DNA from: a virus
IMG/VR virus record: IMGVR_UViG_3300045988_174371
Location: 256,001 to 320,000 of that record
Length of the DNA: 64,000 bases
Reading direction: 5' to 3' (one strand)
Part shown: positions 51,039 to 61,333 of the stretch, piece after piece
How positions within the stretch are numbered: position 1 is the stretch's first letter
Layout of the letters: each line of letters starts with the position of its first letter
Position numbers and translations under genes: made by a program
Notes under the pieces: model-generated
The model's input: only the letters and a program-made list of their open reading frames with translations
What the model was told of the DNA's origin: nothing
Database searches by the model: none

Positions 51039-53551
51039 TTACCAGACTCGAAGCTTATCGCCGTACCTGTTCTTATCAGAGATTGGCTGAACGTTAAGCG
51101 TCTGGTCTTCCATCTCGTAGCGGCGCAACACGTTCTGAATAGCATACTCAGAAGTGGTAGCCTGGAAAGCAGTTGCCCTGCTACCGTCAGGGTCACTCAA
51201 CCTGTCCATCGGCGTAAGGTTCTCACGTATCTGAACCATCAGCCCCTTCTTATCGTCTACAACGACGTAAGTCTCACGAGTGCCATCCTTATCTGGAGCA
51301 TTACCAATAATAAGGTTGCCCTTCTCAGCGTCCTCAATCTTCACAGACTCAGTGTTCCAGTTCACACGCCTAGATGCCACAGGGTTATGCTCCGTGAGCC
51401 TCGGCTCAAACGCGCCCGCGAACTCATCAGCCTGCGCCGTAATCATATCGCGCTTACGTCGAGCACTATTCATGATGGATACACGAGTTTCCGGCGAAAC
51501 GTCAGGGTGCTCACTAAGGATACGCTTCATGTCCTCAGCCTCATTGTACTGTTTCACCGGCTCACGCTTAGAAGCCTTAAACTCCTTCGCGTTAGCGTCA
51601 AACTCCACCTTACCAGCATCAATCTGCTCCTTGAGGTACTTCCTCACCTCACGCTTGAGCGCACCTTCGTTACCTGCCTTGAGCGCATTACTGGACTTAC
51701 TGATGGCGGGCATACCGAACTGCTTGCGGGCAACCTCATAAAGCTTCCCGGCGTCCATAGAGTCCACACCATCCGCAAGCTCCCTATTGCGGCGAGACTG
51801 CTCAGTTAGAGCACTCTCACGTTCCTTAAGGTAGTTCGTCACATTATCAAACATCTCCCCATAGGTTCCACTACCTTCATAGGTGCTCACAATACCAGGG
51901 TCAGCAGAGCTACGCCCAGCACGGAAATGACCGCCGTTATCGAGTGCCGCATACTCGTATAGCTCATCCTCATTAGAGTAAACGCGGGCACCGCCTGAGT
52001 GAAGCAGGTTCGTACCATCAAGGTCATGCATCGCACCAGTCTTCAGGTTCACATGACCCCACAACGCCCCATTAGGCGCACGCAGGGAACCGTCTTCCCC
52101 AATCTTGTAAACGAGAGCGTCTTGGTCGTTTAGCATGACGTAAGCGCCAGGCTTGACCTTTGCCTTCAACTTCGCGCCAGCTTCCTTGTGGTAAGCCTTC
52201 ACAGCTGGCGAAGAATCATGCAGATAGAAGTTCTTACTGATAGGTGAATTTTTCAGCTGGTCAAGGCTGGAAGTATTGGACTTAATACTTGCCTTAATAT
52301 CCTCCAGCTTCGCCGGGCCACTCTTTCGCGCCGCCTCATGCTTTGCATTAGTCGCATCCTTAAGCGCATCACCATACTTCTCAGCGTACAGCTGGTGACG
52401 CAACTTATTCAGCTCAACCTCCGGGTTCAACCCAAGCTTGGACAGCTCATCAGGCGACACATCCCCCATGTAACGCCCCCAAGCCTCACTACTATCAATG
52501 CCGTCATTGTGAATGACATCTGCGTTGATATGGTTATAAGCCGCCTTACGGAAGTATGGGTTAGAGTCCCCGGATACTGAATCATCATATTCTGCATAAT
52601 TGCGTCATTGACTTGGTTGCCATCTTCACCGTAGTCAGTGATAGAACGCCAAGCGCGAGTATCGCGCTCACCAGCAACACCATCATACGCCGCGTCAGCC
52701 GCCTCATTAAGGAGCTTAAACTCATCCTCATAGTTAGAGGCAATAGTCCGCTCCTCAACGTTCAGTTGGTCAGTCTGACCTGTGCGCATAGCCGTCAAAG
52801 CTACCCCAAAGTTATGGTACTCACCTTCCAGAGCCTTGTAGTAATCGCCGCCCCTGTCCCCATAAGAGTAAGAGTACCCTTGCCTGTCCAATGCAGGCGG
52901 AAGCTCCTCAAAGTCGCTCCTAGCAGACATCTTGTAGGTACTGAGAACTTCCTGGAACTTAGCGAAACCCTCTTCCGTTTCCAGGTCAATGTCTTCCGGC
53001 TTAGACCTTTGAACCAGCGGGTGCGTCTCACCTGTCAAAGAGTCTCGCAATGAAGCCTCTCGCTTAGCCATAAATTCGCCAACAGCTTCACTCATTGACG
53101 CGGGAGGCTCATAATCCTCATAATCATCGTCATCCTCCAGGTCACCCAAATTAGCGCTCAGCGCTTCTCGAAGTTCCTTCAACCCATCAGACTCAGCCTC
53201 AACGGTAGGTTCCTCTGCTACGACATCCTTACCTACGTTCTCGCGGGCGTACTTCGGGTCAGTCGGCTCACCAGCCAGTAGGTGAGCAATATCTTCAGGG
53301 AAGCCCATTTCAACCGCTTCATCGAACGGAATTTTCGACTCGCCCATAGCCTGAACGTGAATCTGGTACCCTTCCCTTAGGGTGGGTTCAAGAGACTGGA
53401 AAGCATTAGAAACTTCTTCCAAGTAGTTGTGCGCTTCCGAAGGGTCTGCGAAGTGGTTACCGTAAGGGCAACGTCCCTTATCGGCGCGGCATGTACCGCT
53501 GGTGAGTTCACCCTTCTTATTGAAACCTACGTGAGTTTTCTGTGCTGTCAT
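51039..53551 (-). pseudogene. Frameshifted copy of the H-C-C-H knuckle / C-terminal-Trp family (array copy 1)
   Basis: Track ORFs 52427..53551 (N-terminal part) and 51039..52469 (C-terminal part) together align with the intact paralogues. The downstream frame is open from 52604, and homology switches frame (-1) near 52565..52585. Confidence 0.7.
53247..53391 (-). repeat. 145-bp block identical to 55886..56030
   Basis: Base-by-base comparison shows 145/145 identity between array copies 1 and 2, while flanking codons are diverged. Confidence 0.9.
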
Positions 53552-53585
53552 ATTAGTTATCTATCCTTTTCATTGTTTCAAGTGT

Positions 53586-58819: not shown

Positions 58820-58879
58820 TAACTATATATCGCATATAACCAGCGCTATGAAGCACCTACCAGTAAGGTTGTATGTATA

Positions 58880-61333
58880 CTACCAGCGGCGCAACGGTTG
58901 CCGCGCCTTATCGTTCTCTTCATCCGTAGGAATCTGCATCACCGGCAGGTACGGGTCAGCAGACTTGTAACGGTTGATGATGTTCTGAATCGTGTACTCT
59001 GATGCAACAGGGTTCGACAAGCCGGAGCCCGTACCCACAATACGTGGGTCTAGGTTAGCCTGAGGGGTAAGCCCCTCATTCACAGGAACCATCAGACCCT
59101 TATCGCGGTCTACCACAACATATGCGGGGGTAGCGCTCACCATGTCGCCAACATTTTCGACTAGTATCTGCCCGTTGCTCGCGCCGCTAATTCGACTACT
59201 CGCACCATCTGAACGGCGGTGAGTAACAGCCGCATAGTCATTCGGTGGAGCGTCCATACCGCCCGCGAACTGGTCAGCCATTCCAGTCTGAAGCTCACGC
59301 TTACGCCTTGCCGCATTCACAACTGAAACACGCTCAGTGGGCGTAAGGTTCTCGGTGCCTGCCACATACATAGCGTCACCCTCAGGCTTGAACGCATCAA
59401 TGGGCTTACGGTTCGGGTTGTAGAACCCGCCCTTACTTGCGTCATATCCCAGCGTACCCGCCTGAACCTTCTTATCGATGTACTTTCGAGTGTAGCTCTT
59501 GAGCGCACCCAAGGTTCGCGGGTTTGGGTTGGAGTCGTATGCCTGAGACCTGGGCATACCAAGCTCAGCTACCGCACGCTCGTACAAGTCTTCGACATCT
59601 TGCGAATTGACAGCCTTAGTGACCTCATGGGCACGCTTGGAACGCTCAGTGAGGAGAGCTTCCTCCTGCTTCAGATGGTTGTATACATTGGCGAACGCAT
59701 CCGTGTACTTCGGGTCGCTCTCGTAGCGGCTCTTGTAGCCGGGGTCAGCAGACGTAACGCCAGGCTCATTGTGGGAGCCGTTATCAAGGGCGGCGTAGCG
59801 CATCAGCTCAGCACTGTTCGCGTAGACACGTGCACCGCCAGCAGACGAGATGTTCTGACCATCAGCCGTGTACATGTTGCCCGACTCAAAATCAACGTAA
59901 CCCCACAGCTTGCCATCATTAGTGCGAATACCGCCCTCATGGTCAATCTGATAAGCCTCAGCATCCATACCGCCCATCATGACGCAAGCGCCAGGCTTCA
60001 GGATGGACTTAGTGCGCTCTGCCGCACGCTCATAGTACTCCAACTCTGCCGGGGTACTTGCGTGAGCGGTGTTGTCGTAGAACGGTGTGCTGTGGACGAT
60101 GCCTGCGTTGCGCTTCTTAACTGCTTCACGAATCTCTTCAACGCTATTTGGAACCTTGGCATTAGCCGCCGCCTTAGCCTCACGGGTAGCCCTCAGCATG
60201 TCGCTGTATGCGTTGATGTAGTTGTGTTGCTGAAGCTTACGCGCTTCGCTAGGTGCAAACTTTGCATATCCAATGGGGCGCTTAACGTCAGGGGTTTCGC
60301 TCCCCCTATCCTTACCGCCATAAATCTGCACAACCCTGCCATCAATCGCGTTGTACGCCTCCTCACGGTCTTCAGGTAGCTCGCCCTGAACCTTACGTGA
60401 GAGAAGGTCGTGAACAATCTTGTCGTTGAGTTCGTTGCTCTCTTCGCCGTAATGTTTGAGGTCTGAGCGAACCTTAGTCTCCATCTCTTCATCGGAGTAG
60501 TCACCGTTCAGGTCTGCGTCCCTATCAAGCTTCGCCATAGACTCGACAAGGTACCCGAACTGCTCCTGTTCCTCAGGGGGGAGCTGGTCAAGCATATTGA
60601 CGCGGTAAGCGGCTAGGGCTTTACCAAAGTTCTGGTAAGCCTCAAGGGGCGCAGGGTCGCGCTCCTCAGCAGGAGTGAAGATGCCGCCACGTAGAGCCTT
60701 CAACTCATCTGGGAGGTTTCCCTCGCTAAAGTCTGCCGGTGAGGACATCTTGTAGGCGCTCAGAATCTCCTGAAAGCGCTCCATATCCTCAGGAGTATCT
60801 AGTGATGCAGGAGGCTCCACAGCTTCAGGCTTAGGCTTCTCCTGGCGCTTACGTCGGGGCTTCTTCGGCTTCTCCTCAGGAGCAGTCTCCGCCTTTACCT
60901 CTGCGACAGACTCAGGTTCGGCTTCTCCAACCTCTTCCACAGGTTCAGCCTTAGGCTCCTCGGCAGGCTCAGGCGCGACTGGCTCGGGCTTCTCTGCAAC
61001 AGGCTCAATGTCCTTGCCGACGTTCTCGCGCGCGTACTTCGGGTCAGTCGGCTCACCCGCAATAAGGTGTGCAATGTCCTCAGGGAAGCCCATATCAACC
61101 GCCTCATCGAACGGAATCTTTGACTCACCCATCACTTCCACGTGGATTTGGTAACCTTCCACCAGCTCAGGCGGGAGCGACTGGAAAGCCTCCGAGACTT
61201 CCTCCAGATAGTTGTGTGCTTCGTTGGGGTCAGCAAAGTGGTTACCATAAGGGCAACGACCCTTCTTTGCGTCACATTTACCGCTAGTCAGCTGACCATC
61301 CTTATTGAAGCCGACGTGGGTTTTCTGCGTCAT
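58880..61333 (-). CDS. H-C-C-H knuckle / C-terminal-Trp family protein (array copy 4, 817 aa)
   Basis: N-terminus MTQKTHVGFNKDGQLTSGKCDAKKGRCPYGNHFADPNEAHNYLEE. The protein ends ...RQPLRRW. Confidence 0.75.
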   Translation of the reverse strand: MTQKTHVGFNKDGQLTSGKCDAKKGRCPYGNHFADPNEAHNYLEEVSEAFQSLPPELVEGYQIHVEVMGESKIPFDEAVDMGFPEDIAHLIAGEPTDPKYARENVGKDIEPVAEKPEPVAPEPAEEPKAEPVEEVGEAEPESVAEVKAETAPEEKPKKPRRKRQEKPKPEAVEPPASLDTPEDMERFQEILSAYKMSSPADFSEGNLPDELKALRGGIFTPAEERDPAPLEAYQNFGKALAAYRVNMLDQLPPEEQEQFGYLVESMAKLDRDADLNGDYSDEEMETKVRSDLKHYGEESNELNDKIVHDLLSRKVQGELPEDREEAYNAIDGRVVQIYGGKDRGSETPDVKRPIGYAKFAPSEARKLQQHNYINAYSDMLRATREAKAAANAKVPNSVEEIREAVKKRNAGIVHSTPFYDNTAHASTPAELEYYERAAERTKSILKPGACVMMGGMDAEAYQIDHEGGIRTNDGKLWGYVDFESGNMYTADGQNISSAGGARVYANSAELMRYAALDNGSHNEPGVTSADPGYKSRYESDPKYTDAFANVYNHLKQEEALLTERSKRAHEVTKAVNSQDVEDLYERAVAELGMPRSQAYDSNPNPRTLGALKSYTRKYIDKKVQAGTLGYDASKGGFYNPNRKPIDAFKPEGDAMYVAGTENLTPTERVSVVNAARRKRELQTGMADQFAGGMDAPPNDYAAVTHRRSDGASSRISGASNGQILVENVGDMVSATPAYVVVDRDKGLMVPVNEGLTPQANLDPRIVGTGSGLSNPVASEYTIQNIINRYKSADPYLPVMQIPTDEENDKARQPLRRW

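Follow-up and report, generated by a model that had tools for sequence, protein, structure and literature searches.

Mycobacterial PE and PPE proteins share a conserved domain of ~100–180 residues at their extreme N-terminus, with motifs at fixed positions, which is followed by variable bodies; the two families take up a large share of the coding capacity and their members recombine. Phase variation through homopolymer tracts has been documented as adaptive in Mycobacterium tuberculosis, an actinobacterium (PMC10334774). As to giant replicons of the mouth, the portion of the Inocle report on which we draw (PMC12340149) describes extrachromosomal elements of ~350 kb from human saliva, which are missed by standard binning, have Streptococcus hosts and show a GC content of 24–32%. 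Here we analyzed a 64,000-nucleotide stretch of IMG/VR virus record IMGVR_UViG_3300045988_174371 (positions 256,001–320,000, called the window below), which is part of a giant replicon and carries, at 51039–61333 on the minus strand, a head-to-tail array of three intact genes and one frameshifted gene, encoding related proteins of 794–842 residues. These proteins start with a constant His/Cys-containing head, and we tentatively interpret them as a contingency multigene family. All coordinates are those of the 64-kb window; L- and P-numbers designate other loci and proteins that carry or flank the family.

An earlier note, made from the letters of the window alone, had described four head-to-tail minus-strand paralogues, one of them frameshifted. 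We confirmed the open reading frames (ORFs), and the four copies could be aligned from end to end, with scores of 940–1050 bits against a hidden Markov model (HMM) of the family. The genes are listed below, with the ratio of nonsynonymous to synonymous substitution rates (dN/dS) between orthologues.

Copy 4, 58880..61333, minus strand: intact, 817 residues, ending in ...PLRRW; 977 bits over profile positions 1–812; dN/dS 0.08.
Copy 3, 56364..58748, minus strand: intact, 794 residues, ending in ...DLELW; 943 bits; dN/dS 0.05–0.16; missing from the 98%-identical locus L092.
Copy 2, 53659..56187, minus strand: intact in the window, 842 residues from a conserved ATG, ending in ...DLILW; 1049 bits; dN/dS 0.10–0.16; the copy with the poly-C tract.
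Copy 1, 51039..53551, minus strand: two overlapping ORFs (52427..53551 and 51039..52469); 837 residues, ending in ...KLRVW, once a G is restored.
Lesion of copy 1, 52573..52574, minus strand: a single missing G, CAGTAT[G]CCGGGG, outside any homopolymer, placed by comparison with the intact orthologues of L094 and L092.

Intact orthologues of copy 1 were found elsewhere (P0033, 823 residues; L094; L007), and the break in the window is a plain deletion with no tract event. Between strains, orthologues showed dN/dS values of 0.05–0.16 for every copy. The array genes were found again in many independent assemblies and belong to protein clusters of 52–210 member sequences. Paralogues were 65–96% identical in their first 105 residues and 32–37% identical in the remainder. 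Because the bodies have diverged to this extent, the copies are old paralogues and not assembly duplicates, an artifact that the earlier note had left open and that the dN/dS values also contradict. The four copies are real genes under purifying selection.

In an alignment of 32 family members, with identities down to 23%, the invariant residues were Lys4, His6, Cys20, Cys27, His32, Trp842 and ~14 residues of the body; the six shared elements listed in the earlier note, from the His/Cys N-terminus to the final Trp, were all present. The ligand pattern H-x13-C-x6-C-x4-H was found in all 32 members. From this conservation, the four-ligand site in the head appears real and well supported, and it would bind a metal, presumably zinc. 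An AlphaFold2 model of copy 2, built from a 32-sequence alignment (predicted local distance difference test, pLDDT, 80.7; predicted template modeling score, pTM, 0.72), predicted three short strands and a helix for residues 5–51, followed by short helices up to about residue 105.

Zinc knuckle of copy 2, 56086..56187, minus strand: residues 1–34, with His6, Cys20, Cys27 and His32; net charge +4; modeled as three short strands and then a helix, pLDDT 76–91.
Head module of copy 2, 55861..56187, minus strand: residues 1–109, comprising the knuckle and four short acidic helices and ending in ...AGEPTDPKYARE.

The knuckle had been likened to the distal part of CCCH fingers. This likeness held in so far as the four ligands were invariant and the best matches of the head were all of the CCCH type, but none of these was significant: E values were 0.11–0.15 for MBNL1/2 (PDB), 0.026–0.46 for Nab2-like fingers and 0.34 for zf_CCCH_4, with scores of ~11 bits for Nab2-like zf-CCCH (cut-off, 27) and 11.5 bits for zf_CCCH_4 (cut-off, 29). 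CCCH fingers were taken to have three Cys and one His, spaced C-x7-8-C-x4-5-C-x3-H. The head was not assigned to this class: its first ligand is an invariant His, the spacing is longer and no profile scored above its curated threshold. The HCCH motif of the Vif type, from human immunodeficiency virus (HIV), was ruled out by its spacing.

The head is a separable module, found on unrelated bodies. Three further genes of the window carry it in whole or in part.

14809 protein, 14809..17052, minus strand: 747 residues; same head of ~80–100 residues, L-K-L-W end and upstream box (see below); unrelated, very acidic body, pI 4.3.
21664 protein, 21664..23178, minus strand: 504 residues; zinc knuckle and ...WTVW end; unrelated body; one-mismatch box at 23340–23349.
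473-residue head-bearing gene, 61435..62856, minus strand: adjoins the array upstream in every lineage; unrelated body; dN/dS 0.01–0.02.

These had been regarded as shorter relatives of the array genes. The 14809 protein indeed shares the head and the L-x-L-W end with them, and the other two share the knuckle, but none shares the family body and they are not shorter versions of it. When the 14809 family was compared with the array family, the heads aligned with a probability of 92.6% and an E value of 4.4e-7 (hhalign), while for the 473-residue protein the knuckle alone aligned (E 0.006). The latter protein terminates in His, its orthologues in other lineages in Trp or Tyr. In P0046, a family-type body (from a distant member) is joined to a head of the 14809 type. 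A head HMM detected nine head-bearing genes, with at least five body types, in the genome arm that contains the window, and none across ~40 kb of the replication module; the head always started within a few residues of Met1, and the genes sit among surface and secretion genes. A common C-terminal domain of the head-bearing proteins was also considered and rejected, hhalign aligning the head only. A query made of the concatenated 14809 and 21664 proteins returned 14809 relatives alone, and structure prediction of the 14809 family was unusable (pLDDT 42.6). A head-only profile run against a set of 5.8 billion proteins gave 32 scored candidates, which were fragments of the same genes, and says little about how far the head has spread.

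Two more head-bearing genes lie just beyond the right end of the window, at L154:7243–8592 (449 residues) and L004:2550–4253 (567 residues), the latter with the variant head H-[FI]-SP-x-x-PPFPG…C…CP[YF]GG…H. Neither product has a terminal Trp, so that the head and the Trp ending are not strictly coupled.

Evidence that heads move between copies came from DNA comparisons. Copies 1 and 2 were 76–100% identical over their first ~330 nt versus ~45% in their bodies, and one segment of 90 nt was completely identical. In pairs of orthologues, the synonymous divergence (dS) of the head was 2–25 times that of the body (e.g. 1.69 versus 0.26, and 0.27 versus 0.011), which indicates that heads were exchanged between copies independently of the bodies. 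The number of copies varied as well: syntenic loci carried one copy (L009), two (L011), three (L001, L099, L102 and the L104–L112 lineage) or four (the window, L003–L008, L094–L098 and L093/L103); the 473-residue gene was always present on the upstream side, and two small genes together with those for an adhesin and a sortase on the downstream side. Locus L092, which is ~98% identical to the window, has no copy 3; the alignment passes from the upstream region and head of copy 3 into the body of copy 2, with a junction within the first ~130 nt of the head (L092:9986–10132 versus 56056–56187 and 58617–58748 of the window). This is what unequal crossing-over between adjacent heads would produce. 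In other strains, different copies were broken.

A second source of variation was found in the linker that joins head and body.

Linker of copy 2, 55708..55860, minus strand: residues 110–160; disordered, pLDDT 31–41; 20% Pro and 27% Asp + Glu; gap-rich in the alignment.
Poly-C tract, 55743..55751, minus strand: C9 on the coding strand (G9 on the plus strand), in the linker of copy 2; the sole homopolymer of 8 nt or more in the window.

Breaks in copy-2 orthologues recurred at profile position ~137–141, and the linker poly-C tract was their cause. The frame was intact with C9 (window, L094, L007, L095, L006) and split with C8 (L092, L005) or C10 (L096, L098, L100, L003, L004), and it followed the tract length in three backgrounds (L094 versus L092 and L096; L007 versus L098; L006 versus L003–L005). 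In the 90% cluster of the copy-2 protein, a 686-residue OFF fragment represented 7 of the 15 members listed. Further tracts were present in other strains, namely a C13, a C8 exactly at the break of another copy and a C11 located 39 nt upstream of a copy. In a distant lineage, a C8–C12 tract is the 3' arm of a terminator hairpin between the 473-residue gene and the first copy. This arm, which in L104–L115 lies ~60–66 nt upstream of the first copy (e.g. L107:5026–5035), measured C8, C9, C10 or C12 depending on the strain; such differences could alter read-through into the array.

Homopolymers of 8 nt or more are expected 3.3 times per 64 kb from base composition (order-0), and we found one other in ~180 kb examined outside the array. 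Among 11 further family-bearing loci, 8 contained such a run, which in 6 of these 8 was a poly-C in or beside the array. The copy-2 tract has the properties of a contingency locus, being a long tract within a coding sequence whose length differs between close strains and toggles the frame; from these consensus assemblies, the definition applies at the level of between-strain polymorphism only. Copy-number change, head swapping and frameshift switching bear out the 'ongoing diversification' that the earlier note had mentioned.

The linker varies in length and sequence among members. The body that follows (~680 residues) was modeled as mostly helical, with predicted small beta modules at 471–526, 652–663 and 748–776. 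The proteins end in a short conserved motif.

C-terminus of copy 2, 53662..53676, minus strand: D-L-I-L-W; family consensus [PKND]-L-x-[VL]-W-COOH.

Among 33 unique tails, Trp was last in all 33, Leu stood at –3 in 31 and Val or Leu at –1 in 30. In the window, 6 of the 29 large minus-strand ORFs end in Trp (Trp frequency, 1.3%), and these 6 all have the N-terminal His/Cys motif. Within the body, residues 551–583 of copy 2 (~54439–54537) contain an invariant S-x-DPG-x-x-S-R-Y-E that resembles the start of domain II of anthrax lethal factor (PDB 1yqy) over 33 residues, with an E value of 1.2. This resemblance was discarded as probably due to chance, there being no fold match behind it.

The family had been called unrecognised, and this was upheld: the profile and structure searches gave no confident assignment. 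No match was found in Pfam, PHROGs, NCBIfam or PADLOC; a family profile run against PDB sequences returned nothing for the body beyond the 33-residue resemblance to lethal factor, and Foldseek of the model against PDB and BFVD returned nothing (best E values of 0.3–0.5 with TM scores of at most 0.1, i.e. helical noise). The PADLOC defense models matched none of the copies or distant members, and gave chance-level matches only for 14809 and P0042. There was no match to deposited phages and plasmids at the DNA or protein level, the 'phage' matches of SecA being mislabelled bacterial contigs, and a scan of 185,579 species-representative genomes with the family patterns revealed no relative. An exhaustive HMM search identified 25 representatives among 1.84 billion proteins, and 32 clusters were found among 5.8 billion proteins. 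Members of the family are labelled 'hypothetical protein' in every public source, and all came from contigs of ~307–380 kb from human oral metagenomes. The protein family and its fold are new, and our searches found nothing outside one lineage.

We put forward, as a tentative reading, that the four genes form a contingency multigene family in which a constant docking head is combined with diversifying bodies, at an interface of conflict or adaptation. In this view, a docking or address module, the head, would bring many bodies to one common partner, which might be a machine or else a nucleic acid, belonging to the element or to its host. One common partner is argued for by a head that is constant, putatively metal-stabilised, tethered and kept uniform across paralogues and unrelated bodies. 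Recombination between paralogues would keep the heads matched to this partner, and the bodies would diverge toward different specificities. The repertoire would be varied by unequal crossing-over between heads (one to four copies), by slippage at the poly-C of the copy-2 tether (on with C9, off with C8 or C10) and by ordinary decay (the 1-bp deletion in copy 1 of the window). We would expect the proteins to be cytoplasmic and to act in conflict, and the tract variation to represent adaptive switching, a pattern often associated with genes that serve conflict with a host or a competitor.

Several observations weigh against this proposal. We identified no partner, machine or activity for the head, and the neighborhood of the array showed neither small ORFs of the immunity type nor a secretion system or genes for virion proteins. 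The knuckle has a net charge of +4 in the 800-residue family only, the values being +1, +1 and –2 in the other head families, so that no uniform surface property of the head was detected. The head of copy 2 showed a dS of 1.3–2.0 when compared with those of copies 3 and 4, and the strong similarity of the heads could partly reflect constraint instead of conversion. Because the model confidently packs the terminal Trp as a strand on the protein (pLDDT ~90), the predicted tail may be structural and not a docking peptide. The head may also occur outside this lineage. Finally, the tract differences could be neutral hot-spot mutations or, in some data sets, homopolymer assembly errors.

Further elements linked to the head-bearing genes were found upstream of them.

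Box of copy 4, 61402..61411, minus strand: TGATATATAt, ~70 nt upstream.
Box of copy 3, 58823..58832, minus strand: cGATATATAG, ~75 nt upstream.
Box of copy 2, 56269..56278, minus strand: TGATATATAG, ~82 nt upstream.
Box of the 14809 gene, 17127–17136, minus strand: exact match.

Exact minus-strand matches to GATATATAG or TGATATATA occurred at four sites in the 64 kb (~0.25 expected for each), each of which lies 70–82 nt 5' of a gene with a head, namely 14809 or one of copies 2, 3 and 4. When up to one mismatch to TGATATATAG was allowed, 10 sites were found versus 2.6 expected, and one-mismatch boxes precede the 21664 gene and a P1-like adhesin gene (box at 49243–49252). The same box precedes family copies in a distant lineage, where the order is terminator hairpin, box, ~50-nt leader, GAGGA and ATG; in the lineage of the window, a hairpin of 16–18 bp stands between the box and the start codon. 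Judged from its position, the box is a candidate promoter or operator element of a head-gene regulon. Consensus scans for sigma-70 promoters and terminators did no better than on shuffled sequences. The intergenic gaps of the array measure 101–176 nt, contain no ORFs and in most cases contain a hairpin. The stem-loops and the neighboring downstream genes are as follows.

Stem-loop I5, 61364..61400, unstranded: 16 bp, 94% complementary; between the box and the start of copy 4.
Stem-loop I4, 58780..58820, unstranded: 18 bp; between the box and the start of copy 3.
Stem-loop I3, 53585..53630, unstranded: 17 bp, perfect; upstream of copy 1.
Stem-loop I2, 50957..50999, unstranded: 17 bp, perfect; just downstream of copy 1.
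Stem-loop I1, 63385..63440, unstranded: 25 bp, perfect, terminator-like; upstream of the 473-residue gene, marking the upstream boundary of the locus.
Two small conserved genes (~96 and 261 residues), 49786..50996, minus strand: downstream of the array in every lineage; no match in Pfam or PADLOC.

The first of these small genes probably starts 3' of the hairpin at 50957–50999.

The box also enters a broader reading, which we consider rather unlikely. According to this, the His/Cys head would be the address tag of a new protein-sorting or assembly system of giant actinobacterial oral replicons, comprising at least nine proteins with at least five unrelated body types, whose genes would be under joint control of the TGATATATAG box. 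Their delivery to a single dedicated partner would depend on the zinc-stabilised head, perhaps with a contribution of the terminal Trp, and the 800-residue family would be the diversifying, phase-variable arm of the system.

The replicon itself bears on the remaining alternatives. The window has a GC content of 50–54% (52% for the element) and almost all of its genes lie on one strand. They encode SecA, a sortase, several wall-anchored adhesins with x-A-x-T-G signals, a GH25-LGFP-NlpC/P60 hydrolase, PspA and a CPBP protease, and also a C5 methyltransferase, TnpB and a T4-type deoxynucleoside monophosphate (dNMP) kinase domain, besides five scattered tRNAs. IMG/VR lists two family-carrying contigs as viral genomes, of 306,861 and 319,426 bp; in the former, the family lies at ~290 kb and a MazG-like gene at ~46 kb. 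The window and its left flank bridge the ends of the 306,861-bp contig at the expected distance (~62.8 kb versus 62.5 kb), and we therefore infer that the genome is circular or permuted. All six head proteins of the window were also found on a contig of 360,715 bp from a human oral metagenome (assembly ERR589675), the longest contigs reaching ~380 kb.

By walking we covered positions 270–307 kb and 0–92 kb of the 306,861-bp contig, i.e. ~129 kb or 42% of the genome; the pooled family scans of this region report the best 25 families. The walked part contains a second sortase, signal peptidase I, a Dda/RecD helicase, SbcD-like phosphoesterases, RecA, RecX, FtsK and a PD-(D/E)XK nuclease, as well as LigA, DnaG, a Ser/Thr kinase and Rpf-type transglycosylases. 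No PHROG for capsid, portal, terminase, tail or prohead protease was found in these ~129 kb, and type VII genes (EccC/EssC, WXG100) and other secretion systems were absent from the families reported for them (the best 25 in the pooled scans). Actinobacterial markers include LGFP repeats, an Rpf-type transglycosylase, the x-A-x-T-G sorting signals and a SecA closest to that of Actinomycetaceae (48%); the nearest named relatives of SecA belong to Actinomycetaceae and Microbacteriaceae, with 47–48% identity. Judging from this gene content, the replicon is an autonomous element of ~307–380 kb with actinobacterial affinities and a bacterial-type replisome, in agreement with the idea of a mobile-element-encoded module already expressed in the earlier note. 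The expected host is an actinobacterium of the mouth.

Other features of the replicon were recorded along the way. SecA (33406–36909) carries an insert of ~300 residues (roughly 35668–36588) right after its Walker A motif, with intein-like ends (…GTGEGK/AVTTDTLIPTPEG … IVTHN/TLTAV…, the slashes marking the junctions); the 'terminase', 'primase' and 'helicase loader' PHROGs matched in the pooled scan are probably due to this insert. Directly 3' of SecA, 32200–33366 encodes a 388-residue protein with about six zinc ribbon-like C-x2-C…C-x2-C repeats and no Pfam match. The neighboring paralogues at 29387–30607 (406 residues) and 30738–32048 (436 residues) start with …(V/I)FSFNT(G/S)ND…; their C-terminal halves are acidic and rich in Pro, they gave no Pfam match, and they represent another lineage-specific duplicated family. 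A C5 cytosine methyltransferase gene adjoins that of an IS200/IS605-type TnpB (Cas12f-like TNB domain) at 38719–42315, with two tRNA genes between this pair and SecA. The tRNA-Cys(GCA) at 18122–18210 is, with 89 nt, unusually long for this isoacceptor; single Ser, Gly, Thr and Pro tRNAs are present elsewhere in the window. In L119:12148–17669 (IMGVR_UViG_3300045988_174689, ~48–54 kb), DnaE is split into a part of 500 residues (PHP and N-terminal region) and a part of 903 residues, with a 429-residue clamp-loader gene in between.

Some of these features concern the cell surface. Four large surface proteins (3666–5495, 6203–9307, 24430–27771 and 46410–49118) end in the x-A-x-T-G signals VAATG, EAKTG, EAKTG and KAETG, respectively, each ahead of a hydrophobic segment with a basic tail. 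Sortases are encoded at 44187–45047 and L116:11755–12582, with signal peptidase I nearby, and by the motifs they carry the element appears to be equipped with its own surface-display toolkit. A cyclic di-AMP (c-di-AMP) riboswitch of the ydaO type (11585–11783, 52.6 bits) lies directly 5' of a gene for a secreted NlpC/P60 hydrolase (10479–11591), and the two make up a cell-wall regulatory circuit on the giant element.

Bacterial proteins bind the sliding clamp through a pentapeptide, Q-L-x-L-F, with the variant QLPLWG in mycobacterial ImuB. The C-terminal L-x-(V/L)-W of the family could be such a motif, the CCCH-like knuckle binding RNA or DNA, and the proteins would then be nucleic-acid- or replisome-associated factors that ride the replication or transcription machinery of the element or the host. 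The tail fits in its spacing (Leu at –3, Val or Leu at –1, an aromatic end) and is preceded by an acidic stretch, and its presence on the unrelated bodies of 14809 and 21664 is expected of a short linear motif. RNA-binding CCCH fingers make up all of the best, non-significant matches of the head, the main family has a basic knuckle (+4), and genes for a DnaE polymerase and a clamp loader are present on the replicon itself. However, the first ligand and the spacing are unlike those of CCCH fingers, the zinc-finger matches all lack significance and a basic knuckle is confined to the main family. Neither DnaE nor any other replisome protein of the element has a comparable motif or a terminal Trp, the region sampled showed no gene for a clamp, the head-bearing genes lie outside the replication module, among surface and secretion genes, and the model buries the tail with high confidence. 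Paralogues that vary in phase and copy number would also be unusual for core nucleic-acid machinery. We regard this explanation as rather unlikely.

Large phages package proteins into their virions, such as the internal proteins of T4 and the paralogous inner-body proteins of phiKZ-like jumbo phages. If the replicon were a huge phage, the head could be a capsid-targeting signal and the bodies host-takeover or anti-defense cargo that is packaged and injected; a common N-terminal tag on unrelated, non-secreted proteins and tandem paralogues are typical of such cargo. The IMG/VR listing of the two contigs and the phage-like genes (T4-type dNMP kinase, Dda-like helicase, MazG-like enzyme, SbcD-like nucleases) point in this direction. 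Yet the listing by itself is a classifier output, the 42% of the genome that was sampled has none of the structural PHROGs mentioned above, and nothing matched deposited phages, PHROG or BFVD folds. The replisome is of the bacterial type (DnaE, clamp loader, DnaG, LigA, RecA, RecX, FtsK), and SecA, signal peptidase, two sortases, many wall-anchored adhesins, PspA and the c-di-AMP riboswitch fit long-term residence in a cell. A virion-borne role thus appears improbable.

We found it equally improbable that the proteins are exported effectors. Effectors and host-interaction factors had been suggested in the earlier note, and neither suggestion gained support, as no secretion signal, partner or activity came to light. 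By analogy with the PE/PPE or LXG proteins of type VII systems, or with substrates of the divergent SecA, the head might be a recognition domain for a specialised, non-classical export, and the bodies might have their targets at the surface of the host, in competitors or in human cells. The architecture does mirror PE/PPE, since the N-terminal domain is constant and placed at a fixed distance from Met1, the bodies vary, the expansion amounts to ~15 kb of the 64 kb, and recombination and homopolymer switching occur; moreover, the same genome arm carries the divergent SecA (47–48%), signal peptidase, sortases and adhesins, one adhesin gene having the one-mismatch box. Nevertheless, no signal peptide, transmembrane segment or sorting signal was found by reading of the sequences or with Pfam, no type VII component or other secretion system was seen in the ~129 kb, there are no immunity-like genes between the copies, and a folded metal site would be a poor Sec substrate.

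That the array consists of decaying or selfish repeats without function, or of an assembly artifact, could be suggested by the frameshifted copy of the window, by the different copies broken in other strains and by the want of any known relative, but it is hardly credible in view of the dN/dS values and conservation, of synteny and full-length conservation across lineages that are 23–25% identical, of a confident model, of recovery in many independent assemblies and of paralogue bodies whose 32–37% identity excludes a collapsed or duplicated assembly.

If the idea of a docking head is true, the head would be a new targeting domain and a handle on an undescribed replicon of ~307–380 kb, widespread in human saliva across several independent metagenome data sets. 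The poly-C switch predicts mixed tract lengths within single samples, and the conserved upstream box defines a candidate regulon.

Compared with known systems, the family resembles PE/PPE in organization and shares with them an actinobacterial setting, a conserved N-terminus, variable bodies, a large part of the coding capacity, recombination between members and switching by homopolymer frameshifts (for the switching, PMC10334774). It differs in that no similarity to PE, PPE, WXG100 or LXG was detected with Pfam and NCBIfam, the head being a His/Cys knuckle and not a helical hairpin, and in that the genes reside on a giant extrachromosomal or virus-like replicon and not on a chromosome. With contingency loci, it shares a C8–C13 tract in coding sequence, whose length differs among near-identical strains and sets the frame, and an enrichment of tracts at the locus; here, however, the variation is known from differences between assemblies, and the tract encodes part of a Pro-rich linker and may persist for coding reasons. 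Polymorphic toxins (LXG, Rhs, CdiA; PMC3482391) likewise combine a constant head with a variable remainder, occur in tandem arrays and reassort heads and bodies. In contrast to them, the bodies described here are homologous over most of their ~680 residues, without a short swapped toxin end, and no immunity genes, recognisable trafficking or toxin domain, or secretion system were found.

For the head itself, the nearest likeness is with the CCCH fingers of MBNL, Nab2 and tristetraprolin, whose last three ligands (C-x5-6-C-x3-4-H), with nearby aromatic and Gly/Pro residues, it resembles. But its first ligand is a His located 13 residues upstream and not a Cys at 7–8, the matches reached 10–16 bits versus cut-offs of 27–29, and the predicted structure is a three-stranded sheet with a helix, in a module that is single, strictly N-terminal and encoded by a bacterium or mobile element. 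The tail shares with the clamp-binding pentapeptide its hydrophobic residues at –3 and –1, an aromatic last residue and a location at the very C-terminus of unrelated proteins, but it has no Gln, its aromatic residue is always Trp, the DnaE of the element has no comparable motif and the tail is packed in the model. The Bro-N and KilA-N families of viruses also comprise one N-terminal module, carried by many genes of a large replicon with different C-terminal parts; no similarity to them was found in Pfam and PHROGs, and nucleic-acid binding by the present head is putative.

As far as the consulted portion of the Inocle report goes (PMC12340149), Inocles are also giant oral replicons with a sortase, signal peptidase, LPXTG-like surface proteins, a RecD-like helicase and DNA polymerase III alpha. 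Their repertoire resembles that of the present replicon by analogy only, and we rejected an identity with Inocles on the basis of the same portion, the GC content being 50–54% here versus 24–32% and the nearest SecA being actinobacterial versus a Streptococcus host. The replicon parallels the Inocle elements, but in Actinobacteria. The genetic strategy of its array, with a constant N-terminal module, diversifying bodies, copy-number change, recombination and homopolymer switching, is a familiar one.

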